From Rhodothermaceae bacterium bin80 (GTDB taxonomy: Bacteria; Bacteroidota; Rhodothermia; Rhodothermales; Bin80), in assembly GCA_002238805.1 (NCBI GenBank), contig MPNB01000003.1, forward strand, positions 6,407-70,406: a stretch of DNA of 64,000 bases, read 5' to 3'. The notes beneath the pieces are model-generated. The model did no database searches and was not told the DNA's origin. It worked only from the letters and a program-made list of their open reading frames with translations. The position numbers were made by a program, and so were the translations under genes. Position 1 is the stretch's first letter. Each line of letters begins with the position of its first letter. Of the stretch, positions 21,127-38,102 are shown in pieces.

Positions 21127-24100
21127 ATGAAATGGTTTTCTTTCGTGGCAGTGCTATGTGCGTTGCTTTTTCCGGGGCTGGTGAGCGCACAGAGTGTAAT
21201 CTCGGGAACGGTTACCGATGAAACAGGTGAGCCGCTCATTGGAGCGAATGTGCTCATTGAGTCATTGGTTATAGGTGCGTCCACCGACCTAGATGGGAAC
21301 TACACCTTCCAGGTGCCTGCTGCAAATGTCGGGCAAATACTGGAGCTGACCGCTGGCTACATTGGTTTTACAGACCAGGTTCGAACCATCACGGTCAGCG
21401 AGGGCATTATGACAGAGGATTTTGTTCTGGCTGCTGATCTATTGCAGTTGGACGAGTTTGTGGTCACCGGTGTTGCCGAAGCTACACCCAAGAAGAAACT
21501 GGCCTTCACCGTGAGCCAGGTGGGCTCTGAAGACATTACATTGGCGCCGGCATCAAACCCGATTGCTTCCATCCAAGGGAAGGTTGCCGGTGTGGCTGTT
21601 CAAGCACGCAGTGGTACGCCTGGGGATGCGGTTTCTGTTCGTCTGCGGGGTGCTACCAGTATTACCGGGAGTAATCAGCCACTCTACATTGTTGATGGGG
21701 TCGTTCTTGGTGCTAATCAGGTCGACATTGATGCGCTTGACATTGATAATCTAGAGATCGTCAAGGGGGCTGCGGCCTCTTCACTCTACGGATCACGTGC
21801 CCAGAATGGTGTGATCAATATCACAACGCAGCGGGGCGGAGCTGTTCCCCTGAACCAGACCCGCGTGACGGTTCGTAACGAGTTTGGTGTGAGTGGTGTG
21901 GCCAAGTCATTCCAGGCCAATACATCCCATGATCTGCAAGTGGATGGATCTGGGAATTTCCTGGATAATGCGGGAGCAAGAAATGAATGTACGACCTGTT
22001 TGAGCAATGGATATGGCCCAGGCACGCTGCAGGATACGAACCCGCATGGTGCTGCTTTTTATGACAAACCGTATCAAGGCGCACTCTATAACGCGTTCGA
22101 TCAATTTTTCAATCCCGGAAATACGTGGACCAACTATGTCGGTGTAAGCCAGAACAGTTCCAAGACAAATTTTCTGGCTTCTTTCACGAACGTTGTTGAG
22201 CAGGGTGCTATTCAGGGTTTGACAGGCCTCGAGCGCAGGAATGTCCGGGTTAACTTGGATCACCGTATTCGGCCTAACCTTACTGTCTCAAGCTCGGGAT
22301 TCTATTCCCAGTCGAAGAACGATGCGATGACCTCATCTTTGGCTTCAGATTCAAACGTCAATCCGTTTTTTGGTTTGATGTTCACAAATCCGCTGGTCAA
22401 TCTGTCAGCAAAGGATGAAGCAGGTGAACTCAAAGTTCAGGCAGATCCATTGGCCGTAGAGGAAAATCCATTGTATGTGATTGAGAACGCTGATATGAAT
22501 CAGGACCGCTCGCGTATCCTTGGGAATTTCCGGGCACGCTGGAGCCCGCTTGACTGGATGGACTTAGAGAGCAATTTCAGCTACGACCGCTCTGACAGGG
22601 ATGAGTTGGAGTTTTACGACATCGGGTTCGCAACTATTGATCCATCCCCGTTAAATGATGGTCGCATTGAACGGCGTAACGCGGTCAGTGAGGCAATCAA
22701 TTACGATATTACGGCTTCTTTCCGTAAGCGGTTTGAAAGCTTCACCACACGTGCTCAACTCAAGGCGCAGGTGGAAGATTTTGATTCGTTCTCAGAATTT
22801 GTATTAGGGACCGATATCGTAACCTTGGGTATCTCGGATCTCTCCAACGTGGAGACAGAAGGCGAAAAAGTATTTGGCAACGGCTCCTCAACGGTTCGGT
22901 CTGAGGGCTATTATGCAACTGTCGGGGTGGATTACGAGGACAAGTACATCGTGGATGTATTCTTCCGCCGGGATGGCAGTTCGTTGTTTGGTGCAGAAGA
23001 GCGCTGGCAGTCTTACTACCGTGGTAGCGCTGCATGGCGTGTCTCGGAAGAAGACTTCTGGCCAACCAACAGCCCCGTAACCGAGTTGAAGTTACGTGCC
23101 TCAATCGGAACAGCCGGGGGTCGTCCTCGCTTCCAGGCGCAATATGAGACACTCTCACTCAGTAATGGCCAGCTCTCAAAGGCGACCTTGGGGAATGCGT
23201 TCCTGAAGCCGGAATTGCAGACAGAAACAGAATTTGGATTGGATGTGGGTGTTCTAGATCGCATATTTATCGAGTTGGTGTATGCGGATACCGAAGTGGA
23301 GGATCTGCTTCTGGCAGTTCCGCTTGCAGGCTACTTCGGGTTTGGCTCACAGTGGCGTAATGCAGGTAATCTGGCATCAAATACAGTAGAGGCCAGTGTG
23401 AATGCGAACATCTACAATTCTCGAGATATGGATTTTGAGGTCGGTGTCATTTTCGACCGGACGCGTCAGGAGATCACCGAATTCCATTCCAATCCATATC
23501 TGGGTGGACCACAGAACCTGTTCTTCTATCGAGAAGGCGAAATTCTGGGTTCGATGTACGGCAATAAGTTCATCACAGAACTCTCTGAACTGCCCGCTGG
23601 TGCGGATGCAAGCTACTTTGACGTGAACGACGACGGCTACGTTGTAGCGGTTGGCCAAGGGAACAGTTACAGCAGTGGCCCGGGTACAGATGGCACTTTG
23701 GGCGGGGAGGATGATCTGTGGGGTACGACTGTTTCTGTGGGTGACGACAACTATCGCTGGGGAATCCCGATCAAGTACTACGACGAGGCTAATGAGACGG
23801 ACCGGGTCCAGATCGCTGACGCCCTTCCGAATTTCAGTGTTGGAGTGAATTCCACATTCCGCTACAAAGGATTCACACTGTATATGCTGTGGGGCGCTCA
23901 AATTGGCGGTGACGTTTATAACTTCACAAAGCAGTGGAGCTACCGTGATGGTCGCAACACCGACCAGGATCAGGGTGGTAAGCAGGAAGGCATGAAGAAG
24001 TCCACCACGTACTACGAAGTGCTCTACGATGCTACCGCAAAGAACAGTCACTTTGTAGAAGATGCGACATATATCAAGCTGCGTGAGCTTTCGGTGGGAT

Positions 24101-24315
24101 ATACACTGAACCGTCGGCAGCTCTCACGTGTCTTTGGTAATGTGCTGCATTCCGTTTCGGCCAGCATCATTGGGCGTAACCTGTTGACGTTCTCTGATTA
24201 CTCAGGGTTCGATCCCGAAGTAGGTTCCGGGCCAGACGCGACGTTATACCGCGTGGACAATTTCAATTACCCACCCTTCCGCACGGTTCGGGCAAAGCTG
24301 GAATTCCAGTTTTAG
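21127..24315 (+). CDS. SusC/RagA-family TonB-dependent outer-membrane receptor
   Basis: The signal peptide is MKWFSFVAVLCALLFPGLVSAQ. A carboxypeptidase-regulatory-like domain (ISGTVTDETGEPLIGANV...TDLDGNYTF) and a plug (IVKGAAASSLYGSRAQNGVINITT) follow. The protein ends in a terminal aromatic residue (...LEFQF) and is followed by a SusD-like gene. Confidence 0.9.
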   Translation: MKWFSFVAVLCALLFPGLVSAQSVISGTVTDETGEPLIGANVLIESLVIGASTDLDGNYTFQVPAANVGQILELTAGYIGFTDQVRTITVSEGIMTEDFVLAADLLQLDEFVVTGVAEATPKKKLAFTVSQVGSEDITLAPASNPIASIQGKVAGVAVQARSGTPGDAVSVRLRGATSITGSNQPLYIVDGVVLGANQVDIDALDIDNLEIVKGAAASSLYGSRAQNGVINITTQRGGAVPLNQTRVTVRNEFGVSGVAKSFQANTSHDLQVDGSGNFLDNAGARNECTTCLSNGYGPGTLQDTNPHGAAFYDKPYQGALYNAFDQFFNPGNTWTNYVGVSQNSSKTNFLASFTNVVEQGAIQGLTGLERRNVRVNLDHRIRPNLTVSSSGFYSQSKNDAMTSSLASDSNVNPFFGLMFTNPLVNLSAKDEAGELKVQADPLAVEENPLYVIENADMNQDRSRILGNFRARWSPLDWMDLESNFSYDRSDRDELEFYDIGFATIDPSPLNDGRIERRNAVSEAINYDITASFRKRFESFTTRAQLKAQVEDFDSFSEFVLGTDIVTLGISDLSNVETEGEKVFGNGSSTVRSEGYYATVGVDYEDKYIVDVFFRRDGSSLFGAEERWQSYYRGSAAWRVSEEDFWPTNSPVTELKLRASIGTAGGRPRFQAQYETLSLSNGQLSKATLGNAFLKPELQTETEFGLDVGVLDRIFIELVYADTEVEDLLLAVPLAGYFGFGSQWRNAGNLASNTVEASVNANIYNSRDMDFEVGVIFDRTRQEITEFHSNPYLGGPQNLFFYREGEILGSMYGNKFITELSELPAGADASYFDVNDDGYVVAVGQGNSYSSGPGTDGTLGGEDDLWGTTVSVGDDNYRWGIPIKYYDEANETDRVQIADALPNFSVGVNSTFRYKGFTLYMLWGAQIGGDVYNFTKQWSYRDGRNTDQDQGGKQEGMKKSTTYYEVLYDATAKNSHFVEDATYIKLRELSVGYTLNRRQLSRVFGNVLHSVSASIIGRNLLTFSDYSGFDPEVGSGPDATLYRVDNFNYPPFRTVRAKLEFQF

Positions 24316-24331: not shown

Positions 24332-25981
24332 ATGAAACCTGAAGACATAAATCAGATGAAACGAATCGTTTTTTACACATTGGTCGGCTTACTGTCGTTG
24401 AGTGCTGCTGGCTGCCAGGATTTGGCCGTTGAAAATAATAATGCTCCAGACCGGAAGGTTGCTTTCGCGCAGCCCGGGGATGTTGTAAACTTGGTCAAAG
24501 GTACTTTTGCTGATTACTGGCTCAGCATCCAGAATTGCGGCAATGGTGCGATGTTTTTTTCGACATTGGCAGATGAGAATTCTTCATCGTGGGCCAACTG
24601 GGGGATGAGAGACATGTCAAGTGAGCCTCGCATTGCCTGGGATAACAGTTCAACCTATAGTCGTGCTGCTTCTACGAGGGAACCGTGGTTTGACTCTTAC
24701 CGTGGTATCTCGAATGCAAACGACGCCCTGCAGGCTATCGCGCGTGCTGAAGAAGAAGAAAGTGTAGAGAATAACATTTTCACACGCGAAGGTTATGATA
24801 CAGCGCGCCTGAAAGCATTTGCAAAAATGAACCAGGGCCTCATGCACGGGACACTCTCTTTGATCTTTGATCAGGCATTCATTGTCGATGAGACTGTAGA
24901 TTTGGAGAATGATGCGCTGGAATTGCGTTCGTACATGGAAGTAAACCAGGAGGCTATTCGGATGCTTGAAGAGGCACGTGCGATTGCGCAGGCAGGTTCA
25001 TTCTCGTTTACGGCGACAGAAGACTGGATCTGGGGTCTTGATGTAACTTCAGATGACATGGTTAAACTGCTTAACTCGTTCATTGCGCGGTTAACCGTTC
25101 AGGTTGCCCGTGATGAGTCTGAGCGCGCCGCGGTAAACTGGAGTGAAGTGATGAGTCGTATAGATGCCGGTATTACCGAAGATTTCTCGCCCATTGGTGA
25201 CGACGATGGCACTACGGAATGGGATTGTCTTAAGTTTTACGGGCAAAACGGAACCACTTGGAGCAGGGCTGATTACCGCACGATTGGGCCGGCGGATGAG
25301 TCTGGCGGTTACGATGCATGGCTGGCAAAACCCCTTGGAGAACGCTTAGTCTTCGACATTGCTACAGCGGATCGTAGGATCGTAGGAGACGCCACCGATC
25401 TGACAGTTGATGGTTCTGATTTCCAATACCAAGGTAACAATGGGCCATTCCCTGCCGCCCGTGGTGTTTATCACTATTCGTCGCACAATCATAAGCGCTA
25501 TCAGTACTACAATTTGGGGAATTCTAACGGAGCAATGCCCCACATGATTATGGCAGAGATGGATATGTACAAAGCTGAGGCACTGTTGCGTACGAACGGC
25601 AGTACGTCCGTGGTTGCTGATCTGATTAACAAAACTCGCGTGAGCCGGGGGATGCTTAATCCAGCCTCTGCTACGGATTCACCCGGTTCGTCTACAGATG
25701 CGCAGAGTCACATGGATTCAGCCAGTCTATGGGCGAAGCTTAAGCATGAGCGGCGTATAGAGACGTTCCAGACTTGGGCTGGCTTGGCATATTATGATGA
25801 TAGGGGATTGGGTGATCTTGTTACGGGTACGCCGATCCATTTCCCTGTGCCAGGCAGAGAATTGGAAACGCTGGGATTACAAAGCTATACGTTTGGCGGT
25901 GTTGGAGGTACTGGAGGTGCTCCAATTGCCTATCAGCGGGACGATTATCGGCAGGATTCCGATAATGTCCGTCCCCGCTAA
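24332..25981 (+). CDS. RagB/SusD-family nutrient-binding outer-membrane lipoprotein
   Basis: Has the lipobox LLSLSAAGC, TPR-like helical content and a C-terminal region (KHERRIETF...AYYDDRGLGD) typical of SusD-like proteins. It lies immediately downstream of the SusC-like gene. Confidence 0.85.
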   Translation: MKPEDINQMKRIVFYTLVGLLSLSAAGCQDLAVENNNAPDRKVAFAQPGDVVNLVKGTFADYWLSIQNCGNGAMFFSTLADENSSSWANWGMRDMSSEPRIAWDNSSTYSRAASTREPWFDSYRGISNANDALQAIARAEEEESVENNIFTREGYDTARLKAFAKMNQGLMHGTLSLIFDQAFIVDETVDLENDALELRSYMEVNQEAIRMLEEARAIAQAGSFSFTATEDWIWGLDVTSDDMVKLLNSFIARLTVQVARDESERAAVNWSEVMSRIDAGITEDFSPIGDDDGTTEWDCLKFYGQNGTTWSRADYRTIGPADESGGYDAWLAKPLGERLVFDIATADRRIVGDATDLTVDGSDFQYQGNNGPFPAARGVYHYSSHNHKRYQYYNLGNSNGAMPHMIMAEMDMYKAEALLRTNGSTSVVADLINKTRVSRGMLNPASATDSPGSSTDAQSHMDSASLWAKLKHERRIETFQTWAGLAYYDDRGLGDLVTGTPIHFPVPGRELETLGLQSYTFGGVGGTGGAPIAYQRDDYRQDSDNVRPR

Positions 25982-26006
25982 GCATATCTAGACAGGAGAT
26001 AAGGTC

Positions 26007-26040
26007 GGGGAGGTCAGTGCGTCGAAAGCGCTGACCTCCC
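26007..26040 (+). terminator. stem-loop after the SusD-like gene (possible attenuating or terminating hairpin)
   Basis: GGGAGGTCAG...CTGACCTCCC forms a 10-bp GC-rich stem around a 14-nt loop, 26 nt after the stop. There is no clear T-tract afterwards. Confidence 0.35.
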
Positions 26041-26072
26041 TGTGTATATTGGATAATCACGACTGAATATGG

Positions 26073-26570
26073 GTGAATTCTATGCATCGAGTAATGATTT
26101 TGGCTTTGGGCATCATGCTATTCTTGGGGGCCTGTTCCGGTCCCGGCTCTGATGGCGACCGTGCTGCCAGTAGTACGCTAAGGTTCAACCTCGGGACCTC
26201 AGCGCGGAATCATATCGTCACAACAGCTGAAAACGCTCTGCTAACACGGTACGGATATCGATTGGATCGACGCGTAGATACGGCTGAAGATGTACGATTG
26301 GAGACATCATGGAAAGAAGTTACCGCACTTGAAGATGAACGACTATCCGGGTATACCCAGGTGAGAGTGCGCGTTTCGGTTACGGCACGTCCACGCAGCC
26401 GTGCAGGAGGCATAGGTAGTACATTTGCCGCACGTATGGTAGCCGAGTGTGAGGGACAACCTGCAGTGGGAGGTAATTGGGTAGAAGTACCAATTACGTC
26501 TGAACGGGAAGCATATTTTGAAGAGATTGCCGAGTACCTCGAGAATGAGTTCAAGGGTGGCGTGATGTAG
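26073..26570 (+). CDS. hypothetical lipoprotein
   Basis: Has the lipobox signal ILALGIMLFLGAC and no recognisable domain. It occupies the slot that SusE/F-like lipoproteins usually fill. Confidence 0.5.
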   Translation: MNSMHRVMILALGIMLFLGACSGPGSDGDRAASSTLRFNLGTSARNHIVTTAENALLTRYGYRLDRRVDTAEDVRLETSWKEVTALEDERLSGYTQVRVRVSVTARPRSRAGGIGSTFAARMVAECEGQPAVGGNWVEVPITSEREAYFEEIAEYLENEFKGGVM

Positions 26571-26584: not shown

Positions 26585-29500
26585 ATGTTCAGCCGGCCTT
26601 TAAATAACACCCTGTGCTTCGTCCTGCTTGGTGCGCTCGTCCTTGTAGGGTGCGGTAGAGAGTCCGAACGTACGTGGGTGCCTTTCGAAGGGTATGAAGT
26701 GCGTCCGCTTGTTCCCCCGATCGGTAAAGGTACAGGGTTTACGGAAGTCTCAAACTCCATTGCGTTCAGCAATGCAATCAGCACTTCGGCCTTCGTAACC
26801 AACCGACATGTTGTGAATGGATCGGGTGTAGCTACGGGTGATGTAGACGGAGATGGCCTGCCCGATGTTTTTCTGGCAGGCATGGAGCATAGGAGTACGC
26901 TCCATCGCAACCAGGGGGATTGGCAATTCGAGGATGTGACCCTCGGGGCTAACCTGGGTTTGGTGAACCCGCGGGCAACCGGGGCAACGTTCGCTGACGT
27001 GGATGCAGATGGTGACTTGGATCTGTTTGTGACATCGCTTGAAAGCGGTTCACAACTGTTCCTGAACGATGGTGCAGGTCAATTCACAGACCATACCGCA
27101 CAGGCAAACCTTCCGCAATCCGGAGGCGCAACTACGGTTGCGCTGGCAGACATGGATCAGGATGGTGACCTGGATATATATATAGGCTTCTACAAGGAGG
27201 CCACGGTCAAAGATATCTGGCCGCCCAATGAAATCACCTTCGAACGCGTTGTAAAACAGGTTGCCGACTCGTTCGTGGTCAGTGATTACTGGGCAGATGA
27301 TTACAAGCTCATACGCCAGGGCGACCGCCTGATGCGTGTAGAGTTGGCAGAGCCAGATCGCGTATTCTTCAATGATGGGGCAGGCTATTTTACCGAAATA
27401 TCCTTTACAGATGGACTTTTTCTGGACGAAGAAGGTCATCCGTTAACGGAGTCCCCGCGAGATTGGACTCTAGCAGTACGCTTCCAGGACTTTAATGGAG
27501 ATGGGTACCAGGATCTCTATGTATGCAATGATTTCGAAAGCCCTGATCATTTTTGGCTGGGCAGTGCAGAGGGTACTTTCAGGGCAGTCTCCACATTGGC
27601 CCTGAGGAAAACCAGTCAGTCGACGATGTCCGTGGCTGCAGCAGATGTTGATGCAGATGGAGATGTGGACATGTTTCTGGCGGACATGCTGAGCCGGGAC
27701 TATATACGTCGGCAAAAGCAACATTTTGTAATACCTCCCGAGGTATTAACTATGGGAGATATTCGTGCACGTCCGCAGGAGATGCAGAACATGCTGCTGT
27801 TGAATCGCTCCGATACGACCTTTTCCGAGATAGCACGCATGAGTGGCGTTGCCGCGACGGGCTGGACATGGAGCAGTGCATTCATGGATGTGGATTTGGA
27901 TGGTCTGCAGGATTTGCTCCTCACCACCGGTCATGCATACGATGCAATGGATGCAGACGCACAAATCGCCACAGGCTCTTCCCGACGCCCCTGGCGAGAG
28001 GTTCTGTTGGATTTTCCAGACCTGGATCTACCAAATATTGCGTTTCGCAATCTCGGTGGTGCCCGTTTTGAGTGGGTTGAGGAAGGTTGGGGGCTTGGGG
28101 TAATCGCTGATGTGGCACATGGAATGGCCTTCGCAGACCTTGACGAAGACGGAGATCAGGATGTGATCATAAATCGCTTGGATGCTCCCGTGGGGGTATT
28201 TCGTAATGATGCAGAGGGTGAGCGAATTCTCGTTCGTCTTCGAGGGAATGAACCGAACCCACAGGGGGTTGGTGCAGTGGTGCATGTTGTTAGCGATAGT
28301 TTGCCCCCTCAGCGACAGGAAATTCTTGCAGGCGGACAATACCTCTCCTCAAACGACGCATCGCTCACGTTTGCCTATGCTCCGGGTGCACAGATTGAGG
28401 TGCATTGGGCAGGTGGCGGTCGCAGTGTCATAAAGGAGGTCATATCTAGTTACGAGTACAGAATCTTTCAGCCGGAAATCGAAGCAACCGAACCGTCTGC
28501 GGTTCAGGCTACGGAGACACTGTTCACAACGTTGAGCACGGGATTGCATCACGAAGAAACCAGTTACGCAGATTTTAATCGACAACCACTTTTGCCACAT
28601 AAACTTAGCCAGAGAGGCCCTGCGCTGGTGGCAGCAGACGTGGATGCAGACGGTGATGAGGATCTGATCCTGGGTGGAGGTAAGGGCAAACGGCTTCAGT
28701 TATCGATAAACGACGGCGGGCGGTTCACAACCACCCAGAGATTGGGCAATTTTTCTTCAGGAGATCACGGGGGTATAGTAGTTTTACCGGGTACCTCTAC
28801 GGTGCTGGCAGGAGTAAGTAACTATGAACGCACGCCGCAGGAAGCCGCAGAAGTTTCGCAAATTGTTCGGCTACCATCACTATATGGTTCTGAGACCTTG
28901 CATATATTCGGGCCGGAGAGCCCGGGGGCACTTGCATTGGGAGATTTTACTGGCGATGGTTTGCTTGAGCTCTTTGTAGGTGGTCATTTCATGCCCGGAC
29001 AGTATCCGGTGAATGTGAGCAGTGTCATCTACCGGATCGAAAATGGAATGCTGGTGCGAGATGACGCTCTTAGTGTGCCATTTGAAACGATAGGGCTCGT
29101 CTCCGGGGCTACTGCTGCCGATCTCAATGGCGATGGCACTACTGATTTGGCACTCGCGACGATGTGGGGGCCGGTACATGTATTTCACAACCGAGGAGAC
29201 GGGCAGTTTGTGCGGATGACGCGTGCGTTGGGATTGGCCGAGTATACTGGATGGTGGAATGGCGTGGCACCCGCAGATTTTGATGGGGATGGCAGACTGG
29301 ACTTGATTGCAACGAACTGGGGGCAAAACATCCCATATGCCCAGGATGTACCGCTCCGTGCGTATTACGGAGACTTGGATAATAATGGCAGCCTGGATAT
29401 TCTGGAGGTACAGCATACCTCGGAATTAGATGCTTTTGGCCTGGTACGGGATTTTCGTACGCTCACGCATGCCTTGCCAACGCTGCGGCAGCATATTCGG

Positions 29501-30223
29501 ACCTACGAGGAATTTGCGACACGTTCGGCGATGGATATCTTTGGCTCTGTACTGAGGGGAGTTGCTCAGCACGAGGTCACACAATGGCAGACAACGGTAT
29601 TTTTGAACCGGGAATCTCACTATGAGGCGGTGCCGCTTGCCGCTGAGGCCCAATGGTCGCCCGCCTTTGCGCCGGTTCCGGGGGATTTCAACGGTGACGG
29701 CCGTACAGACTTGTTTCTAAGTCAAAACTTTTTTGCGGTGGCTTCGGGCTATCCACGCTTGGACAGTGGTCTTGGATTGCTATTACTGGCGGATGAATCC
29801 CATAGACTTGTGCCACAACCGGCGCAGGTATCAGGTATTTACATTTACGGTTCACAGCGGGCTGCGGTGGGGGCAGATTTCGATCTTGATGGTCGGCTGG
29901 ATCTTGCTGTTACACAGAATGCTGGACCGATAGTACACCTTCGGAATACGACTGCAGTAACGGGTCTTCGTGTCGAATTGCAGGAGAATACCATGAATAC
30001 GGCTGCAATTGGGGCTCATGTCCGTGCGGAATACCGGGATGGCAGCCTGGGTGCTTCAGTGCCTGTGGTTGCAGGAAGCGGATATTGGTCACAGAGCAGT
30101 CTTGCACCGATATTGGCTCCGCGTGATCGGATTGTTAAAGTACACGTTAGCTGGCCGGATGGCGCAGCTACCACGACAGCTATCCAGCCGGATGTGCAGT
30201 CAATTGTAATCGCACAGCAATAG
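26585..30223 (+). CDS. FG-GAP/VCBS-repeat lipoprotein with two ASPIC/UnbV-like modules (CRTAC1-like)
   Basis: Has the lipobox LVLVGC and many DxDxDG calcium-loop repeats (DVDGDGLPDVF, DVDADGDLDLFV, DMDQDGDLDIYI, DLDEDGDQDVI). UnbV-like segments occur mid-protein (GVGAVVHVV...AGGQYLSSNDASLTF) and at the C-terminus (IGAHVRAEY...GSGYWSQSS). Confidence 0.85.
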   Translation: MFSRPLNNTLCFVLLGALVLVGCGRESERTWVPFEGYEVRPLVPPIGKGTGFTEVSNSIAFSNAISTSAFVTNRHVVNGSGVATGDVDGDGLPDVFLAGMEHRSTLHRNQGDWQFEDVTLGANLGLVNPRATGATFADVDADGDLDLFVTSLESGSQLFLNDGAGQFTDHTAQANLPQSGGATTVALADMDQDGDLDIYIGFYKEATVKDIWPPNEITFERVVKQVADSFVVSDYWADDYKLIRQGDRLMRVELAEPDRVFFNDGAGYFTEISFTDGLFLDEEGHPLTESPRDWTLAVRFQDFNGDGYQDLYVCNDFESPDHFWLGSAEGTFRAVSTLALRKTSQSTMSVAAADVDADGDVDMFLADMLSRDYIRRQKQHFVIPPEVLTMGDIRARPQEMQNMLLLNRSDTTFSEIARMSGVAATGWTWSSAFMDVDLDGLQDLLLTTGHAYDAMDADAQIATGSSRRPWREVLLDFPDLDLPNIAFRNLGGARFEWVEEGWGLGVIADVAHGMAFADLDEDGDQDVIINRLDAPVGVFRNDAEGERILVRLRGNEPNPQGVGAVVHVVSDSLPPQRQEILAGGQYLSSNDASLTFAYAPGAQIEVHWAGGGRSVIKEVISSYEYRIFQPEIEATEPSAVQATETLFTTLSTGLHHEETSYADFNRQPLLPHKLSQRGPALVAADVDADGDEDLILGGGKGKRLQLSINDGGRFTTTQRLGNFSSGDHGGIVVLPGTSTVLAGVSNYERTPQEAAEVSQIVRLPSLYGSETLHIFGPESPGALALGDFTGDGLLELFVGGHFMPGQYPVNVSSVIYRIENGMLVRDDALSVPFETIGLVSGATAADLNGDGTTDLALATMWGPVHVFHNRGDGQFVRMTRALGLAEYTGWWNGVAPADFDGDGRLDLIATNWGQNIPYAQDVPLRAYYGDLDNNGSLDILEVQHTSELDAFGLVRDFRTLTHALPTLRQHIRTYEEFATRSAMDIFGSVLRGVAQHEVTQWQTTVFLNRESHYEAVPLAAEAQWSPAFAPVPGDFNGDGRTDLFLSQNFFAVASGYPRLDSGLGLLLLADESHRLVPQPAQVSGIYIYGSQRAAVGADFDLDGRLDLAVTQNAGPIVHLRNTTAVTGLRVELQENTMNTAAIGAHVRAEYRDGSLGASVPVVAGSGYWSQSSLAPILAPRDRIVKVHVSWPDGAATTTAIQPDVQSIVIAQQ

Positions 30224-30224: not shown

Positions 30225-33200
30225 GTGATGTATGACAGTTATCGAAAATGGGCGATCGTGACAGTTATCGCGATAGTAGGCTGTACTGATTCGCCAACCG
30301 ACTGGACACAGAGAGATGGTTTTCGTTACCGGGAGCTGAATGTGCAGGGTCGGTCGCGTACGGGTTTCAAAGAGGTTACTTCGCAGCGGTCCGGGATCAT
30401 GGCAGTCAATGCTGTATCACAGGACGCGATATTAGCAAACCGGCACATGATGCATGGATCCGGTATTGCAATTGGGGATGTGACGGGTGATGGATTGCCC
30501 GACGTGTATGTAGCCCGGTTATCGGCACCGGATGTGCTCTACCAAAACCTTGGTGATTGGAAATTTGAGAATATTTCTGTCCGGGCGGGGCTGGACAGCA
30601 CGGCTCGCGCCACAGCCGGTGTGGTAATGGCTGATTTGGACGGTGATTATGATTTGGATTTACTTCTCACTATGCCTCTTGGTCCGGGGGCGGTATATCG
30701 CAATCTGGGAGGGGGCAGGTTTGAGCTCGTTCCCAACGCTTCAGGACTAAATTCTTCGTACGCCAGCACAACCGCAGCTTTGGCCGACATCGATCACGAC
30801 GGAGATTTAGATGCATACATTGCCCGGTACAAGCGAATTGCACTGGCCGACAGTTTGCCCCCTGCGGCCATTAGCTGGGAAGCGGTACTATCGGAGGGAG
30901 AACAGATTCCAAAAAAGGAATTCCAGGCACATTACAAGTTTACACAGGTCGGGACCAAAATCATACGTAGCGAGCTTGCAGAACCGGATGGGCTTTATCT
31001 CAATGATGGTTCGGGACATTTTACTCCGGTCTCATGGACTAACGGGGCTTTTTTGGATACGGCAGGAGATCCGATAGCATCAGCCCCAAAGGATTGGGCA
31101 CTTACGGCCAAGTTTTATGATGTGACGGGGGATGGTATAGCAGATCTGTATGTTTGCAACGATTTTGACAGCCCTGATGCACTTTGGATCGGGCTCGGAA
31201 ATGGTGTTTTTCGACATGCGCCAGATAATGCGTTACGTAAGACAAGTAACGCGACTATGTCGGTAGATTTTTCAGATGTGAATCGTGACGGTATTGTTGA
31301 TTTTTTTATGACCGACATGTTGAGTCGCGATTATTCCCGGAGGCTTCGTCAGCGGAATACGCGCATCCCGCTGGAAGGTCCTCCAGGTGATTTGTCGTTC
31401 CGTCCTCAGGAAATGCAAAACGCACTCATGGTTGGTCGCGGGGACACCACCTTTGCAGAACTAGCCTGGTTTGCGCAGGTAGCTGCATCTGACTGGTCCT
31501 GGGCTACGAGTTTCATGGATGTCGATCTGGATGGCTGGGAAGACATTTTAATCACGACGGGACATGTGTACGACGTACAGGATCTAGATGCACAAGGAGT
31601 AGAGCAGCGTCGCATGGCAGCGGCCCCCTCTTGGCAGGCAGCCAGGCGACTGCTCCTGCATTTTCCGCCTCTCGCACTCGAAAACGTAGCATTTCGTAAC
31701 CGTGGAGATTTGACGTTCGAGAATATGCCTGGAGGATGGGGGTTAGGTCAAAGCGCTGATGTGGCGCATGGAATGGCACTGGGAGATCTGGATGGAGATG
31801 GCGATTTGGACATCGTTACGAACAGGCTGAATGCGGCACCGGGCGTTTATCGCAATACGGGGAAGGCAGATCGGTTGGTGGTTATGTTGGAAGGCGAGCC
31901 TCCAAACACGGGTGGGGTTGGAGCGGCGATACGTGTACACTGTGCGGGGTTACCGGAGCAGTCTAAGCAAATGTCTTCGGGAGGAAGTTATCTGTCATCC
32001 AATCAGTTGATCGCGGTTTTTGCAGTAGGATCTTGGCCGTGCCGGGTTGAAGTTGCCTGGCCGAGGGGTAAACACTCGAGTGTTAACGTGGAAGCGGGTA
32101 ACAGACTTTATGTGATTGAAGAATCAGGGGCAACGGATCCAACTCAGTCACAGCTGCTTTCCCCGGCGGTGTCCATGTATACGCTGCATTCGCAGCTTGA
32201 GCCGCTGATAGAACATGAGTTTGATGATTTTGAGCTTCAGCCGCTGCTGCCTTGGCGCCTCAGTCGGCGGGGGCCGGCACTCGCCGCCATAGATGTTGAC
32301 TGGGATGGTCGTTTTGAGTTACTGGAAGGCGGGGGGCAGAATCAGGCATTCAGACTGCAGGGCAGACCCATCCTAGCCCCACTGTTAGGTGATGCAACAG
32401 GCATTATTGCTCTTCCCATCAGCCGTAGTCGTATACGTGTGATGGTGGGTGAGTCCGGCTATGAGCGCTTTCCAGACTCGTCCTGGATCCATATTTATGA
32501 TATTGCGCCGGATGGCAAAGAATTACAGCATCAAAGGCTTTCCTTTGGTCTGAGTGTGCCGGGACCGTTGTCTGTGGCAGATATCGATTCTGATGGGGAT
32601 TTGGATCTTTTTGTCGGGGGGCATTTCATTCCCGGGGCATATCCGAGAGTTGCAAACAGTCGCATCTATCTGAACGAAGACGGGGCTTATAGGCTTGGAG
32701 AGTCTCTAAATGGATTAGGGCTCGTAAGCGGCAGTGTGTTCGGAGATATGAATGGCGACGGACACGAGGACCTCGTGCTTGCCACGGAGTGGGGGCCAGT
32801 TCGGGTGCTTATAAGAGTAGAGGAAGGTTTTTCAGATCAGACTGAATTTTTTGGTCTGCAATCCTTCCGGGGCTTGTGGCGTGGTGTGTCAGTCGGTGAT
32901 TTTGACGGTGATGGCAGACTTGATATTGTCGCTTCAAATGCCGGATGGAACAGTCGCTATAGTCGCAGTACACAGGTGCGTCTGCACTACGGTGATTTCG
33001 ATGCTAATGGCACGACTGACATTCTGGAATCATTTCTGGATCCGGTCACGAATAAATATCGGTCATCACGTATGCTCGCTGATCTGATACCGGCCATCCC
33101 CCCAATACAGATGCGTGTCACTTCGCACCAGGACTTCAGCACTATGGAGGTTGCACAACTTATGCCATCAGCAGGGGAGAATGCTCAGATCGCCGAAGCA

Positions 33201-33830
33201 GACATGTATGCATCGAGTATCTTTCTTAGCAGGGGGGATCATTTTGAGCACCGTCCATTGCCTGCGGAAGTACAGTACAGCACAAGTATCAGCCCTGTTG
33301 TACTGGATGCGAATCTTGATGGGCACGAAGACATCATTTTATCTCAGAATTGGTTCGCTTATCCTTTGTCAACACCGAGGCAGGATGCGGGTCGGGGACT
33401 CTTGCTATTAGGCCACGGTGATGGCACGTTCACCCCGGCTCCCCAATCCGGATTTGAAATCTATGGAGAGGGGCGGGCTGTCTCTGTTGGAGATTTTGAT
33501 GGAGACGGACAGGATGAGATTGCTTTTTCGCAGCACAATGGTGCGACACTCGTGTATCGTAGAACGTTGTACAGGGAGGGCATTTCTGTTGAATTTGATC
33601 CTCCCACCGATGCTATTGGGGCGATTCTTCGTGTGGTTTATTCAGATGGGAGTCGAGGACCAGCCCGTTCAGTAACTGGGGGAACGGGATATTGGTCGCA
33701 GAATGCGACAACGACTACCCTTGGATTCAGTGGTACTCCGGCTGGAATTGAAGTGATCTGGCCCGGTGGTCAGCAACCGGTTGTGGTGAAACTGGAGGAG
33801 GGCAGAAGAGTGTTGTTGACGAAGCAATAG
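30225..33830 (+). CDS. FG-GAP/VCBS-repeat lipoprotein with two ASPIC/UnbV-like modules (paralog of the previous gene)
   Basis: Has the lipobox VIAIVGC and the same architecture, colinear with 26585..30223 (for example GVGAAIRVHC...SGGSYLSSNQ and GGTGYWSQNA). It starts 2 nt after the preceding stop. Confidence 0.85.
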   Translation: MMYDSYRKWAIVTVIAIVGCTDSPTDWTQRDGFRYRELNVQGRSRTGFKEVTSQRSGIMAVNAVSQDAILANRHMMHGSGIAIGDVTGDGLPDVYVARLSAPDVLYQNLGDWKFENISVRAGLDSTARATAGVVMADLDGDYDLDLLLTMPLGPGAVYRNLGGGRFELVPNASGLNSSYASTTAALADIDHDGDLDAYIARYKRIALADSLPPAAISWEAVLSEGEQIPKKEFQAHYKFTQVGTKIIRSELAEPDGLYLNDGSGHFTPVSWTNGAFLDTAGDPIASAPKDWALTAKFYDVTGDGIADLYVCNDFDSPDALWIGLGNGVFRHAPDNALRKTSNATMSVDFSDVNRDGIVDFFMTDMLSRDYSRRLRQRNTRIPLEGPPGDLSFRPQEMQNALMVGRGDTTFAELAWFAQVAASDWSWATSFMDVDLDGWEDILITTGHVYDVQDLDAQGVEQRRMAAAPSWQAARRLLLHFPPLALENVAFRNRGDLTFENMPGGWGLGQSADVAHGMALGDLDGDGDLDIVTNRLNAAPGVYRNTGKADRLVVMLEGEPPNTGGVGAAIRVHCAGLPEQSKQMSSGGSYLSSNQLIAVFAVGSWPCRVEVAWPRGKHSSVNVEAGNRLYVIEESGATDPTQSQLLSPAVSMYTLHSQLEPLIEHEFDDFELQPLLPWRLSRRGPALAAIDVDWDGRFELLEGGGQNQAFRLQGRPILAPLLGDATGIIALPISRSRIRVMVGESGYERFPDSSWIHIYDIAPDGKELQHQRLSFGLSVPGPLSVADIDSDGDLDLFVGGHFIPGAYPRVANSRIYLNEDGAYRLGESLNGLGLVSGSVFGDMNGDGHEDLVLATEWGPVRVLIRVEEGFSDQTEFFGLQSFRGLWRGVSVGDFDGDGRLDIVASNAGWNSRYSRSTQVRLHYGDFDANGTTDILESFLDPVTNKYRSSRMLADLIPAIPPIQMRVTSHQDFSTMEVAQLMPSAGENAQIAEADMYASSIFLSRGDHFEHRPLPAEVQYSTSISPVVLDANLDGHEDIILSQNWFAYPLSTPRQDAGRGLLLLGHGDGTFTPAPQSGFEIYGEGRAVSVGDFDGDGQDEIAFSQHNGATLVYRRTLYREGISVEFDPPTDAIGAILRVVYSDGSRGPARSVTGGTGYWSQNATTTTLGFSGTPAGIEVIWPGGQQPVVVKLEEGRRVLLTKQ

Positions 33831-33834: not shown

Positions 33835-35988
33835 ATGTCACGTTATTTGACGCTGCTCTTTTTGTTGCTTGCTGCATGCAGATCAACCGAGCCCGAGGGC
33901 ACGGTACAAATGGCTGCGGAGCTTGAAGCAATTGCCGCGGAAACCGACCGAAATCCCCGTCAGAATGCTCATGCAAATGTGGCACGCGCAGCCGCGTTGG
34001 GCATACAGACCATTCCAACAGCTCTTCCCGATCGTATACAGTACAGCGCTTTACTCGGGACCGAGCTGCTGCGGGCAGGGGATAGCGAAGCCGCAGCCGG
34101 GGTATTCGAAGAGATTCTGCAATTACTGGACGCATCCCCCGATGAATTTAATCCGTCGTGGCGTTTGGCTGTTATGGATCACCTCGCGCTCAGCCACTTG
34201 CGGATTGGAGAGCAAGAAAACTGCCTGGTGGATCACAGCGCCTCCAGATGCCTGTTCCCAATCGATCCCACAGGCGTTCATACTCGGCAGCGAGGGTCAG
34301 CAGTGGCCATTCAGTGGTATGAAAAAATTCTTGAAGAAGCCCCAGAGGATATGAATGCTTTGTGGTTGCTGAATCTGGCCCACATGACGCTGGGTACACA
34401 TCCAGACGGGGTTGATTCTAGGTGGAGGATTCCAGTGAATGCATTTCATCAAGGGGCATCAATTCCGAGATTTGTGGATGTGGCTCCACTCCTGGGTGTA
34501 AATGTTATGGGGCTGTCTGGAGGCATCGTACTGGAAGATTTGTCTGGTGATGGATGGCTGGATATTATGATTTCTTCTTGGGGGTTGCGTGATCAGCTTC
34601 GGTACTTTGAGAATGACGGTAAAGGCAAATTTGAGGACCGTACGCATATAGCCGGGTTAACCGGTTTGACAGGGGGACTGAATCTGGTGCACGCAGACTA
34701 CGATAATGATGGCGATCAGGATGTGTTTGTGCTGCGTGGAGCGTGGCTAAGCGAAGGTCACCCGAATTCGCTCCTGCGCAATAATGGTCGAGGCAAGTTC
34801 GAAGACGTCACCATAGAATCTGGAGTTTATTCCCGTCACCCGACACAGACAGCTGCATGGAGTGACTTTGACCGTGATGGGGATCTAGATCTATTTATTG
34901 GGAATGAGTCCAATCCGCAAGCAGGGCGGCATCCGAGCGAGTTGTTTATTAACCAGGGCAATGGGACTTTTGTGGAGTCCGCTCGGGAATATGGGTTGGC
35001 GCTTATTGGCTACATTAAGGCCGTTGCCTGGGGAGATTATGACAATGATGGATGGCCCGACCTGTTCGTCAGCAGGTATCTCGAATCGAACCTGCTTCTA
35101 CGTAATGAGAATGGAAAGGTATTCACAGATGTAAGCAGTACTGCAGGTGTGCATGAACCAATAGATAGCTTCCCGGCGTGGTTCTGGGATTTTGATCAGG
35201 ATGGCTGGTTGGATCTGTTTGTTTCTGGCTGGCGTGCTACAGCCGGTGATATAGCTGCCGAATATCTTGAGTTGCCTGGCGGAGATGAGAAACCCCGGTT
35301 GTACCGGAATCGGCAGGATGGCACCTTTGAAGATGTAACAGAAGCAATGGGATTGAATAAAGTTATGTACACGATGGGGTGCAACTATGGGGATCTGGAT
35401 GGAGATGGATGGCTAGATTTTTATGTGGGAACCGGTGATCCAAACCTCCGGGCACTCATGCCCAACAGGATGTTTCGAAATGTTGAGGGATCTCGCTTTG
35501 AAGAAGTCACGGTCGCAGGAGGTTTTGGCCATCTACAGAAGGGACATGGCGTAGCATTTGGAGATATAAATCACGACGGAGCTCAGGACGTGTATCAGGT
35601 CATGGGAGGAGCCTTTGAGGGAGACCTCGCGCGCAATGTGCTCTTCGAGAATCCGGGACATACGAATGCCTGGGTTGTGCTTTCTCTAGAGGGTACAGGT
35701 TCTAATCGAAGTGCCATTGGGGCGCGTATATCACTCGTCACGGATGTGGATACCCTGTATCGTACGGTCGGGACAGGTGCGAGCTTTGGGTCGTCACCAC
35801 TTCGCTTGGAAATTGGCCTTGGCAAAGCTACAGCAATTGAGCTGGTAACGGTTGTATGGCCGGCTACCGGCATAGTACAGCAGTTTGAGAATGTACCGAT
35901 GCGGCAACTGATTGGCATCCGTGAAGAAACATCTACAATCGAAAGGGTACCTTTCATATCCGTACAATTGGGAGTACCTCCCCCTTAG
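33835..35988 (+). CDS. CRTAC1-family lipoprotein (helical/TPR-like N-domain plus FG-GAP repeats plus UnbV module)
   Basis: Has the lipobox LLFLLLAAC, FG-GAP loops (DYDNDGDQDVFV, DFDRDGDLDLFI, DYDNDGWPDLFV, DLDGDGWLDFYV) and a C-terminal UnbV-like segment (AIGARISLV...GTGASFGSSPLRLEIGLG). Confidence 0.85.
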   Translation: MSRYLTLLFLLLAACRSTEPEGTVQMAAELEAIAAETDRNPRQNAHANVARAAALGIQTIPTALPDRIQYSALLGTELLRAGDSEAAAGVFEEILQLLDASPDEFNPSWRLAVMDHLALSHLRIGEQENCLVDHSASRCLFPIDPTGVHTRQRGSAVAIQWYEKILEEAPEDMNALWLLNLAHMTLGTHPDGVDSRWRIPVNAFHQGASIPRFVDVAPLLGVNVMGLSGGIVLEDLSGDGWLDIMISSWGLRDQLRYFENDGKGKFEDRTHIAGLTGLTGGLNLVHADYDNDGDQDVFVLRGAWLSEGHPNSLLRNNGRGKFEDVTIESGVYSRHPTQTAAWSDFDRDGDLDLFIGNESNPQAGRHPSELFINQGNGTFVESAREYGLALIGYIKAVAWGDYDNDGWPDLFVSRYLESNLLLRNENGKVFTDVSSTAGVHEPIDSFPAWFWDFDQDGWLDLFVSGWRATAGDIAAEYLELPGGDEKPRLYRNRQDGTFEDVTEAMGLNKVMYTMGCNYGDLDGDGWLDFYVGTGDPNLRALMPNRMFRNVEGSRFEEVTVAGGFGHLQKGHGVAFGDINHDGAQDVYQVMGGAFEGDLARNVLFENPGHTNAWVVLSLEGTGSNRSAIGARISLVTDVDTLYRTVGTGASFGSSPLRLEIGLGKATAIELVTVVWPATGIVQQFENVPMRQLIGIREETSTIERVPFISVQLGVPPP

Positions 35989-35997: not shown

Positions 35998-37776
35998 ATG
36001 GTTACTGAGAAGTTTCTGGGAATGCGTTACGTATTTTGCTTAGCTGCTTATCTGGTGGCTATACAGGCTACCCGTGCACAGTCGACAGATCTGGAAGCCA
36101 TAGCCGAGTCCGTCGCGCAATACGAGATTGTTCTGGCGTCTGAACCCTCGATGGATGATGGTTCTCAGACCATTGAAGTACGGCGGCTTCTTCCATTACT
36201 TCCTGAATCTGTTGCTCAGAAGGTGATTGTACCGGATTCCGGCCACATAACTTCAGACGCCCGGGATGCCATTTTGGGCTGGTGGAGAACTCAGGATCCG
36301 TTACCAGCCTCTGAGGTCAATGAGCGAATGGTGGAGCATGTCCGGCGTGTGCAATATGCGCTGGAGCGCTATGTATGTGCTACATGTCCGATGGGTTATG
36401 ATGCACGCGGAGAAATTTATGTTCGTTATGGTGCACCGGAGCGCATTACACGGATTGTATTTGATGACCCACTGCTCATTGACGCAATTTACCAACCAGG
36501 TGTTGCTGTGAGCCCCGGAGATTTTCCAGAGAATGAATTCTGGAGATATCTGAATATCAACCGCGATGCCTACTTCCTGTTTATTCGAGATGGCAAACCA
36601 TACCGGCTTGGTGACACTTCTGATCTATTGCCAACAGCACTTCGGTCTGGTCTAGGACAGGGAGGGCGTGGACTAGTTAAGTCCAAAATGGTACTTGCTG
36701 TTATGCGTTCTATGTACAGGCAGCTTGCTTTAGAGCATTACCATTTTGGGTCGAGATTCAATGAGGTTGATAGATGGTTGGCTGCACACGAAGAGACAGG
36801 ACGTCTGCAGAGCCGCGACATGATGGAGAACGCGAAGATTATCACAGGTGCTACATTACTGACTCAGGGTGAGCGTCCCGAAACCACAGAGTTTGACCAA
36901 GATTTGGGCCAGCCTGCCCATATCTTTGCCCAAGGCATGATCACGAATGCTCGAATTGAAGACGACCAGGCCGCCTATCAAAAGGAAATATTGCTACCTC
37001 CGAGTACTTCGGATGTCCTTTCAACATTGCCTACATTGCCATTGGGCGTGCGTTATGCGAGATTCCTAGAGCCCGATGGCACAACAACAACAGAGATCTA
37101 TTGGCATCCTGAATCCGGTGGATTGATTGCTCCGGGGCATGCATCTGAACCGGTATACTTCATACAAACCTACGCGGCGCAGGAGAGTGCTGATCATACA
37201 TTGCGGCGCAGCAGTACTGATGCGATACGTATTCATATCCCGCCGTCTGGTGAGCCAGTAACGATTCCGGTACAAACAATTAAGGTGACCGGAGATACTG
37301 GTCTGTATCACTTAGCCCTTCAATGGGATCAGTATGGGGTTAACTCTGAGGGAATTGGCCCTCGATTGCAGGTTGCTTCCAGACGGGTAGACTCACTTCG
37401 TTCGCTGGATGCGAGTGGTTTTGCTTTGGAAATGAGTGATCTGAAGCCTCTTGTTCACACCGAAAGCGGGGCCCCGTTGCCATGGCCTCATGACTGGGTT
37501 ATTCCAAGCATGAGGTTCGGGCTGGCATTTGAAATTTATCATCTTACGTATGGTGTAAAAGATGCAACGTCATACACTGTGACCTACGAAGTTACCCCTG
37601 AGCGCAGGCGTACTTCATCGACCAGTGTGGAGTTTGAGGGTCAGAGTCGGGTGGAGCGGACAGAGGTTGTGCTGGATATCGGCAGAAGAACAGGCATGGT
37701 TCGTATAAGGGTCAGGGTTAGAGATGAAATATCAGGTATGGAAGTATCCAGGGTGCTTAGTGTAGAGATGCGCTGA
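35998..37776 (+). CDS. GWxTD-domain-like secreted protein
   Basis: Has a signal peptide. WWRTQDPLPASEVNERMVEHVRRVQYALERY...MGYDARGEIYVRYGAPERI fits the GWxTD-domain pattern as I remember it, with the W degenerate here. Confidence 0.6.
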   Translation: MVTEKFLGMRYVFCLAAYLVAIQATRAQSTDLEAIAESVAQYEIVLASEPSMDDGSQTIEVRRLLPLLPESVAQKVIVPDSGHITSDARDAILGWWRTQDPLPASEVNERMVEHVRRVQYALERYVCATCPMGYDARGEIYVRYGAPERITRIVFDDPLLIDAIYQPGVAVSPGDFPENEFWRYLNINRDAYFLFIRDGKPYRLGDTSDLLPTALRSGLGQGGRGLVKSKMVLAVMRSMYRQLALEHYHFGSRFNEVDRWLAAHEETGRLQSRDMMENAKIITGATLLTQGERPETTEFDQDLGQPAHIFAQGMITNARIEDDQAAYQKEILLPPSTSDVLSTLPTLPLGVRYARFLEPDGTTTTEIYWHPESGGLIAPGHASEPVYFIQTYAAQESADHTLRRSSTDAIRIHIPPSGEPVTIPVQTIKVTGDTGLYHLALQWDQYGVNSEGIGPRLQVASRRVDSLRSLDASGFALEMSDLKPLVHTESGAPLPWPHDWVIPSMRFGLAFEIYHLTYGVKDATSYTVTYEVTPERRRTSSTSVEFEGQSRVERTEVVLDIGRRTGMVRIRVRVRDEISGMEVSRVLSVEMR

Positions 37777-38102
37777 TGATTGTAAGCAGGGTAGATTTTT
37801 TCCAGCAGGTCTGGGATACGGTTGCCATAATTCCAACCTCAAAGGTTACAACATATGGGCATATTGCCGAATACTTGGGAAGTAGGAGTGCAGCGCGCAC
37901 AGTTGGGTGGGCCCTCAAGGCGGCCAAGGGGGCCCATTTGCCGTGTCACCGGGTTGTGAATCGGTACGGTGCATTGACGGGGGCGAAGCAGTTTGGTGGG
38001 GTTAACGTTATGGAACAGTTGCTCCGGAGGGAAGGGGTAACGTTTGACGAAGATGGTTGCGTGATTCTCTCACTCCACCTCTGGATTCCCGGTAGCGGGT
38101 AG
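37776..38102 (+). CDS. MGMT-family protein (methylated-DNA-protein-cysteine methyltransferase DNA-binding domain only)
   Basis: The 108-aa protein has IPTSKVTTYGHIAEYLG and the active-site-type motif PCHRVV. Its ATG overlaps the upstream TGA by 1 nt. Confidence 0.8.
   Translation: MIVSRVDFFQQVWDTVAIIPTSKVTTYGHIAEYLGSRSAARTVGWALKAAKGAHLPCHRVVNRYGALTGAKQFGGVNVMEQLLRREGVTFDEDGCVILSLHLWIPGSG

Follow-up and report, generated by a model that had tools for sequence, protein, structure and literature searches.

A locus of Rhodothermaceae bacterium bin80 couples a SusC/SusD-type (SusCD) outer membrane transporter with three large lipoproteins made of β-propeller and UnbV modules resembling the animal protein CRTAC1, with an exported protein of the GWxTD family and with no recognisable carbohydrate-active enzyme (CAZyme). 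The locus occupies positions 21127-38102 on the plus strand of a 64,000-nucleotide stretch of contig MPNB01000003.1 (assembly GCA_002238805.1); this whole stretch is referred to as the window, and its first letter is position 1. SusC/SusD systems are the main polymer-uptake route of Bacteroidota and are normally read through their CAZymes, and the locus is a real, conserved and uncharacterised variant of such uptake loci. The best-supported reading, which is held with a little more confidence than doubt, is that of a TonB-dependent capture-and-import machine for a polymer.

Gene content of the locus

The list of open reading frames (ORFs) gives 8 co-directional genes for the locus, one fewer than the nine claimed in an earlier note on this DNA. 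Domain calls from Pfam and NCBIfam agree with the gene order described there: SusC (21127-24315), a SusD-like lipoprotein of 549 residues (24332-25981), a small lipoprotein of 165 residues (26073-26570), the three FG-GAP/UnbV lipoproteins FG1 (26585-30223, 1212 residues), FG2 (30225-33830, 1201 residues) and FG3 (33835-35988, 717 residues), a GWxTD protein of 592 residues (35998-37776) and an MGMT-domain protein of 108 residues (37776-38102). The genes are packed as tightly as had been stated, with intergenic gaps of 16, 91, 14, 1, 4 and 9 nt and finally a 1-nt overlap between the stop of the GWxTD gene and the start of the MGMT gene. Lipoboxes are present in the SusD-like protein, the 165-residue protein and all three FG proteins.

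Pfam and NCBIfam scans of the 8 proteins (E <= 0.01) detected no glycoside hydrolase (GH), lyase, esterase, carbohydrate-binding module (CBM), peptidase, hybrid two-component system (HTCS) or extracytoplasmic function (ECF)/anti-sigma factor. The absence of CAZymes and of regulators of polysaccharide utilisation loci (PULs) that the earlier note had read from the sequence is thereby confirmed for these libraries, and a CAZyme or peptidase domain, which by that note's own terms would have refuted its claim, did not turn up in any of the proteins. The adjacent genes are likewise free of CAZyme, peptidase and HTCS, ECF, anti-sigma or SusR-type regulator domains in Pfam scans, and the hydrolase gene nearest to the locus, for a GDSL lipase, is carried by the opposite strand. 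Neither a linked CAZyme nor a linked regulator, by which a classical PUL is recognised, was found with Pfam and NCBIfam.

The transporter core

The first gene encodes a genuine SusC/RagA-type TonB-dependent outer membrane transporter. Its product matches TIGR04056 with 541.2 bits (cut-off 368.25) over model positions 3-981 and consists of a signal peptide, a CarboxypepD_reg domain (PF13715, 60 bits), a Plug domain (PF07715, 56 bits) and the barrel; the TIGR04057 signature scores slightly under its cut-off (41.8 against 46.2 bits), and an STN signalling domain is absent in the Pfam scan. The ORF opens at 21001, but the ATG at 21127 agrees with a preceding AAGGGAG as Shine-Dalgarno sequence and with the typical signal peptide (MKWFSF...VSAQS) that begins there. 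Only 4 genes of the genome are TIGR04056-positive, and susC is one of them.

The second gene begins 16 nt after susC and carries the lipobox LSAAGC. Its product scores 22.9 bits against PF14322, under the cut-off of 27, and has no NCBIfam match, while the profile of its family matches the solved SusD homologue 9rx3 with E = 7e-4. Alignment with hhalign to a PF07980 SusD of the same genome gives a probability of 44% in the W...Y..ISNAN region. Three relatives (P0072, P0090 and P0091) carry a precomputed PF14322 match, and the SusD homologue of locus L048 scores 22.2 bits against PF07980 (cut-off 23.1). The protein has 380 homologues, which in every context inspected are encoded directly behind a SusC gene. 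Position, lipobox and weak profile matches together point to a divergent SusD, predicted to form the lid of the SusC barrel.

The 165-residue lipoprotein matches no Pfam, NCBIfam or PDB entry, and sequence searches of the PDB with the SusD-like and GWxTD proteins likewise gave nothing meaningful. In L100, L001, L104 (with two copies) and L105, homologues with 34-60% identity are encoded right behind members of the same SusD family, so that the small lipoprotein trails the window-type SusD in five contexts. It represents a small, conserved family which goes specifically with this SusCD subfamily and takes the "SusE position".

The propeller lipoproteins

All three FG proteins score above the Pfam cut-offs for PF13517 (FG-GAP_3), PF01839 (FG-GAP) and PF07593 (UnbV_ASPIC). 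Together these lipoproteins of the CRTAC1-like propeller/UnbV type amount to about 3,130 residues, in line with the cargo of about 3100 residues estimated earlier, and contain five propeller plus UnbV modules with 30 calcium-type loops of the pattern Dx[DN]x[DN]G (13 in FG1, 11 in FG2 and 6 in FG3). FG1 is made of two CRTAC1-like modules, with 261 bits against PF13517 and UnbV domains encoded at 28265-28444 and 30005-30181, and matches the CRTAC1 structure 9ETN on its own with E = 1.3e-11. FG2 is a paralogue of FG1 with 41% identity and the same two modules. FG3 starts with about 200 residues that match no family, followed by a single CRTAC1-like module.

A profile built from the five modules of the window and four modules from elsewhere in the same genome was searched against the PDB. 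It matches CRTAC1 (9ETN) with E = 2e-47, profile positions 59-552 aligning with chain residues 22-495, and thereby covers the propeller as well as the UnbV domain. Next, at E of about 1e-6, come the propellers of integrin alpha, and further matches are found to the propellers of Tc-toxin B subunits and to kaptin/ITFG2. Among the 59 PDB matches of the profile up to E = 1 there is no polysaccharide lyase or hydrolase. By this comparison, "CRTAC1-like" is an accurate label for the FG modules, and an enzyme role for the propellers is without sequence support.

The likeness to vertebrate CRTAC1 lies in the alignment of propeller and UnbV/ASPIC domains over each of the five modules, and the Dx[DN]x[DN]G loops are common to both. 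The bacterial proteins differ from it in their lipid anchor, in the number of tandem modules (one or two), in being encoded within a transporter operon and in the additional N-terminal region of FG3. Animal CRTAC1 carries a C-terminal calcium-binding EGF-like domain; an EGF-type domain was not detected in FG1-FG3 with Pfam.

Association of SusCD pairs with propeller genes

The coupling between SusCD and propellers is not limited to the window. The bin80 genome has 15 UnbV matches, and three of its four TIGR04056 SusC genes are trailed by FG/UnbV genes (C102, C161 and the window), while a GWxTD paralogue accompanies two of the four. At C161:27570-37496 (L006), SusC and SusD (SusD-like_2) are found with a GWxTD paralogue on the opposite strand, a 1094-residue propeller protein, an SRAP gene and an M24 peptidase gene; with SRAP, a protein of abasic-site DNA repair, this is a second case of a small gene of the DNA-repair type in the neighbourhood of a propeller gene, and the parallel to MGMT is probably a coincidence. 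A fifth locus (C70) combines a SusC-like barrel with three single-module propellers. The remaining TIGR04056 SusC gene belongs to a classical PUL (C6:10138-27765, L008) with GH116, SusC, SusD, a second barrel, a sulfatase and a 201-residue ankyrin-repeat protein, the last of which may hint at a host-associated lifestyle. Homologues of the window SusD with 48-60% identity keep an FG/UnbV gene by SusCD, even where it lies on the opposite strand. As a separate observation, a protein of about 190 residues without a family is encoded between propeller genes at C102:11945-12529 and in L067, L068, L080 and L083; it is unrelated to the 165-residue lipoprotein.

Of 201 genomes sampled from the phylum, 86 encode UnbV domains. 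When the best UnbV gene from each of 40 genomes outside the order was examined, 25 were in a co-directional SusC-SusD-FG arrangement, four were ambiguous and 11 were unlinked; the unlinked genes comprise seven that encode single-module proteins of about 600 residues, three longer ones (L065, L088 and L089) and one whose locus is truncated at the end of a contig (L091). Two-module proteins of about 1100 residues are mostly linked to SusCD, whereas single-module proteins of about 600 residues mostly are not. The co-occurrence of SusC/D with CRTAC1-like genes, which the earlier note had proposed as a check, is thus found in the genome itself and across the phylum. This implies that the link between SusCD and propellers is conserved and does not reflect chance, and that the architecture is common in the phylum.

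Among the 110 ORFs that neighbour these 29 loci, linked and ambiguous ones together, Pfam identified PAP2 (10), GH30 (6), FecR (6), ECF sigma factors (3-4), GH3 (3) and alpha-amylase (2). The most frequent neighbour is a PAP2-superfamily protein of about 450 residues (L060, L063, L064, L068, L071, L076, L081, L082 and others), behind which a family-less protein of about 303 residues is often encoded; neither occurs in the window.

The GWxTD protein

The seventh gene matches TIGR04514 with 36.6 bits (cut-off 28) over residues 87-153, and its close homologues are named "GWxTD domain-containing protein" by NCBI. The protein has a type I signal peptide, and translation probably begins at the ATG at 36019. 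An AlphaFold model computed from 44 sequences (predicted local distance difference test score, pLDDT, 84.9) shows an N-terminal helical/α-β GWxTD domain, a helical linker and two C-terminal β-sandwich domains. A Foldseek search with this model returned only tandem β-sandwich proteins (factor XIII barrels, arrestin, VPS26 and RbmA) with query TM-scores <= 0.17 and no structural relative of the N-terminal domain. Within the family Trp, His, Asp, Asn and Arg residues are invariant, and there is no invariant Cys.

GWxTD-domain matches occur in 121 of 301 genomes of the phylum, while relatives that match the window protein over its full length are found only in its own order and in one neighbouring family. 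Of 17 inspected loci encoding such relatives, nine have the GWxTD gene directly downstream of SusC-SusD on the same strand (L041, L042, L044, L047, L048, L049, L050, L051 and L056); none of the nine has a propeller gene, and in L047 a SusD gene was undetected by BLAST. The GWxTD gene lies beside SusCD on the other strand in L052, L055 and the C161 locus of the bin80 genome. The remaining loci include one of the window type in the sister genome, one near convergent propeller genes, one with SusC about 4 kb away and three without SusC nearby. The long-form protein has 570-800 residues, and the short forms of about 460 residues in three other genomes (L057-L059) are not encoded beside SusC. With at least nine Rhodothermales loci in which it stands directly behind SusC-SusD, the second co-occurrence proposed for checking is also borne out, and the long-form GWxTD protein is a regular partner of SusCD in this order. 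What is particular to the window is the presence of both partner families in one operon, together with a divergent SusD/small-lipoprotein subfamily and a setting between murB and MGMT.

Variable cargo and the murB...MGMT site

Comparison with relatives indicates that the operon is a composite. The window-type SusD family is followed by the 165-residue lipoprotein and three propellers in L105, and by the same set with MGMT and without GWxTD in L001. In L104 (11759-16458), two small lipoproteins, an M14 carboxypeptidase and a BNR protein of the type IX secretion system (T9SS) stand behind a window-type SusCD; in L102 (12198-20157) the window-type SusCD is accompanied by two Calx-beta/Por_Secre_tail (T9SS) proteins, and in L002 (12236-15823) by a leucine-rich repeat (LRR) protein. 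Such large repeat or surface proteins replace the propellers or stand next to them. A divergent 1200-residue HAMP/HisKA kinase and adjacent sulfate-assimilation genes are found in L002-L004 and L102. As the same SusD family occurs with differing cargo, the conserved core consists of SusC, SusD and the 165-residue lipoprotein, with the cargo variable.

The cargo has also been altered in a sister genome of the same genus (G300). There, the orthologue of FG2 lies in three pieces, broken up by two insertions, each about 3.6 kb long (L040 13500-17181 and L101 1155-4758), which carry four transposase genes (ISL3, Mutator-family, IS110 and DDE_Tnp_1). The N-terminal piece has three in-frame stops and is separated from FG1 by a further 5.8 kb, and FG3, GWxTD and MGMT persist downstream of the broken gene.

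The last gene of the locus encodes a protein without signal peptide that matches PF01035 (87.2 bits) and TIGR00589 (57.2 bits, cut-off 46.4) and has the LPCHRVV motif, within it the PCHRV of the MGMT family. Only the C-terminal domain is present, and the equivalog scores (58.8 against 192 and 51.4 against 345) show that it is not a full-length Ogt or Ada. MGMT follows GWxTD in L040, L041, L042, L044, L047 and L051, FG3 in L001 and SusD in L103. The last of these (SusD homologue P0091, 5820-11932) has the ccm-murB-Band_7 genes upstream as in the window and MGMT 16 nt after SusD without any accessory gene, and is therefore a minimal version of the locus. With 57-79% identity MGMT is also better conserved than the cassette (23-35%). 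In L044 (genome G256, C1:2691000-2710999), a 279-bp direct repeat of MGMT-coding sequence, 98.9% identical, lies at 9119-9397 and 17836-18114 and encloses a cassette of 8.7 kb with the order SusC-SusD-lipoprotein-GWxTD, while differences between the two copies of MGMT are confined to their ends; this looks like the signature of an insertion or duplication by homologous recombination at MGMT. Flanking direct repeats are absent around the window locus, where the sole repeats are the reiterated codons of the calcium loops.

A role for the MGMT protein as component or regulator of the system was considered and rejected, as the gene is kept without cargo (L103) or without GWxTD (L001), is the better conserved and forms the repeats of L044. 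The earlier note had counted it among the members of the operon; it looks rather like a positional flank, which may use the transcription of the operon and would not be part of the uptake system.

Evidence for exchange of the cassette comes from other Rhodothermales in which the site by murB holds SusC-SusD-GWxTD-MGMT. Here, SusC has 23-31% identity to the window protein, compared with about 61% for MurB and 71-72% for MGMT. Two of these murB-site genomes have the closest SusC/SusD relatives of the window (39% and 35%) elsewhere, with their own GWxTD gene and no MGMT (L048 and L056), and the window GWxTD protein is closer to the GWxTD proteins of the murB site than to those of L048 and L056. 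This pattern of identities suggests that the cassette has been replaced between constant murB and MGMT flanks. MGMT would accordingly mark the constant downstream end of a murB...MGMT site at which different SusCD cassettes and cargos reside in different Rhodothermales.

In the window, Band_7, murB and ccmBCE genes flank the locus upstream, and GDSL lipase, ABC and FtsX genes downstream. Outside the locus, at 38348-42237, the GDSL/SGNH hydrolase gene is divergent from the genes of the ABC ATPase and FtsX/MacB-type permease, an arrangement like that of tesA-ybbA-ybbP in E. coli.

Upstream region and transcription

A promoter-like TTGC...TATTTTTTG stretch with an inverted repeat was read from the plus strand at 21020-21072. 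The repeat, at 21057-21072 upstream of susC, is a 7-2-7 structure (CAGATCA-TG-TGATCTG) whose middle two bases are unpaired, and not a perfect 16-bp palindrome. The genome has no second copy of it, and the surrounding stretch is partly conserved in the orthologous loci of G284 and L001, though not as a palindrome. The repeat was rejected as an operator, since it is unique in the genome but the palindrome is not kept in the orthologous loci, and a regulatory role of the promoter-like stretch and inverted repeat is conjecture.

The 91-nt gap between susD and the lipoprotein gene contains a GC-rich hairpin with a 15-bp stem at 26006-26042 on the plus strand, where a hairpin had been claimed. Its minimum free energy (MFE) is -35.4 kcal/mol (z = -4.95), and none of 200 shuffled sequences folds as well. 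Strong hairpins of unrelated sequence are found at the same susD-proximal position in L100 and L001, the latter with a U-tail. The hairpin probably acts as attenuator or as partial terminator and in this way determines how much SusCD is made relative to the accessory proteins. Transcription would probably start upstream of susC, and the hairpin would probably cut read-through and leave SusCD in excess over the accessory proteins. The recurrence of the terminator-like hairpin in two orthologous loci fits attenuation between susCD and the accessory genes but would also agree with full termination, so that susCD may or may not be co-transcribed with the downstream genes.

Comparison with known systems

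The locus resembles the Sus-like PULs or "utilisomes" known for starch and levan in B. thetaiotaomicron in its TIGR04056 SusC with CarboxypepD_reg and Plug domains, in the gene for a lipoprotein lid 16 nt downstream, in the lipoprotein genes at the position of SusE/F, in the hairpin after susD and in the placement of all genes on one strand. It differs from them in that Pfam and NCBIfam detect no GH, polysaccharide lyase (PL), carbohydrate esterase or CBM, no HTCS, ECF/anti-sigma or SusR-type regulator and no STN domain in SusC, and in having CRTAC1-like propellers and GWxTD as accessory proteins. SusCD-type systems for non-glycan ligands exist as well: RagAB, the peptide importer of Porphyromonas gingivalis, BtuB/BtuG and XusAB. 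These share with the locus a SusC-like barrel and a surface lipoprotein without CAZymes and set a precedent for a non-carbohydrate ligand. However, they are not known to have CRTAC1-like or GWxTD partners, and SusCD-propeller loci often carry GH genes.

Searches of the open literature found nothing joining UnbV, ASPIC, FG-GAP or VCBS proteins to SusD or PULs, nothing on GWxTD proteins and no paper describing the CRTAC1 structure. FG-GAP and ASPIC domains are mentioned there only as adhesion or eukaryote-like repeats (PMC2668756 for adhesion). The view that the bacterial function of propeller/UnbV proteins is essentially uncharacterised was therefore upheld, the open-literature searches having found no published function.

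Function and alternative explanations

In the model of a capture-and-import machine, the core of SusC, a divergent SusD lid and the family-specific 165-residue lipoprotein would have been extended in this lineage by three CRTAC1-like, calcium-binding propeller/UnbV lipoproteins. For the propellers, exposure at the cell surface is predicted, where they would capture the ligand like surface glycan-binding proteins, in a putative calcium-dependent interaction with a polymer. The exported long-form GWxTD protein is a second class of regular partner of TonB-dependent transporters. The dedicated machine proposed in the earlier note finds support in the conserved link between SusCD and propellers, but not in the make-up of the operon, which is composite, the same SusCD occurring without cargo (L103) or with Calx-beta or M14/BNR proteins.

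Several observations weigh against this model. The assignment of the SusD-like protein stays under the curated thresholds and is a weak point. Surface exposure of lipoproteins in Rhodothermales is predicted, the acidic residues after the lipobox cysteine being only suggestive. As the same SusCD stands beside no cargo at all or beside Calx-beta, M14 or LRR proteins, propellers are not obligatory partners of the transporter. The FG2 pseudogene of G300, with FG3, GWxTD and MGMT kept, implies that at least one propeller is dispensable, and the insertion sequence (IS) elements in it imply that the downstream genes of that genome cannot depend solely on the susC promoter. Lastly, the hairpin after susD might terminate transcription completely, in which case susCD and the cargo genes would be uncoupled.

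One alternative is that two unrelated units are merely adjacent, susCD ending at the hairpin and the lipoproteins and GWxTD being adhesins, host-interaction or envelope proteins inserted at a permissive site between susD and MGMT. The terminator-like hairpin after susD in three orthologous loci, the cargo-free SusCD at the same site in L103, the difference in cargo between relatives and the gathering of IS elements in this region of G300 would all be accounted for, and FG-GAP proteins of marine Bacteroidetes have been read as adhesins (PMC2668756). The order SusC-SusD-propeller is nevertheless seen in 25 of 40 unrelated genomes and at three loci of the bin80 genome although the SusCD pairs are only about 25% identical, and GWxTD stands behind SusCD in at least nine loci, far above what a permissive site would lead one to expect. 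Two independent units are therefore considered very improbable. In another alternative, the propellers or GWxTD might be polymer-cleaving, non-hydrolytic enzymes outside the family libraries, for example calcium-dependent lyases, and the locus a PUL with a cryptic enzyme. Calcium-dependent β-propeller polysaccharide lyases do exist (PL11, PL22 and PL24/25), three of the four SusCD loci of the genome offer no other candidate enzyme, the invariant residues of the GWxTD domain include His, Asp, Asn and Arg, and the company of GH30 and GH3 that the module keeps elsewhere fits a glycan pathway in need of a first cleavage. This proposal is judged quite unlikely because the module profile finds no lyase or hydrolase up to E = 1, because the closest homologues, CRTAC1 and integrin alpha, are binding proteins and not enzymes, and because three to five reiterated modules per locus resemble avidity-type binding more than catalysis.

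The nature of the ligand is a further point of divergence. An importer of protein, peptide, extracellular-matrix or other non-carbohydrate material, as RagAB is for peptides, would agree with the lack of CAZymes in the operon according to Pfam and NCBIfam, with the M14 carboxypeptidase next to the same SusD and small-lipoprotein family in L104, with the M24 peptidase at the end of the paralogous C161 locus and with the protein-binding function of CRTAC1 and integrin propellers in animals; the ankyrin-repeat protein and the sulfatase of the genome may also hint at a host-associated lifestyle. However, both peptidase genes, M14 and M24, may be incidental neighbours, and peptidases are not among the 25 most frequent neighbour families of the census. 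By contrast, GH30 (6 ORFs), GH3 (3) and alpha-amylase (2) accompany the module in the phylum, as do ECF/FecR regulators of the kind that is typical of PULs for glycans. This weakens the case for a non-glycan ligand, a possibility raised in the earlier note that gained no positive support from these loci, and such an importer is regarded as unlikely. A glycan or glycoconjugate would be slightly more likely as ligand than a non-glycan.

The capture-and-import machine can be taken one step further, in a proposal that is offered tentatively, as a possibility to which we would not commit. SusC/SusD with double-propeller lipoproteins, joined here by long-form GWxTD, might constitute an undescribed class of outer membrane "utilisome" in which reiterated calcium propellers replace glycan-binding proteins and enzymes, with a new class of substrate or a new mechanism of capture. 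In Rhodothermales, the corresponding cassettes might be exchanged at the murB...MGMT site by homologous recombination, with MGMT as homology arm.

Implications

Most SusCD pairs of the bin80 genome are coupled to CRTAC1-like calcium propellers, as is the best UnbV gene in 25 of 40 genomes from the phylum. If these propellers are components of capture or processing, many predicted "PULs" would target substrates, or use mechanisms, that are invisible to CAZyme-based annotation. Separating the MGMT flank from the real components of the system avoids a false functional link to DNA repair. At the same time, the locus gives two families without a function, the long-form GWxTD proteins and the 165-residue lipoproteins, a defined partner, which makes their role testable.

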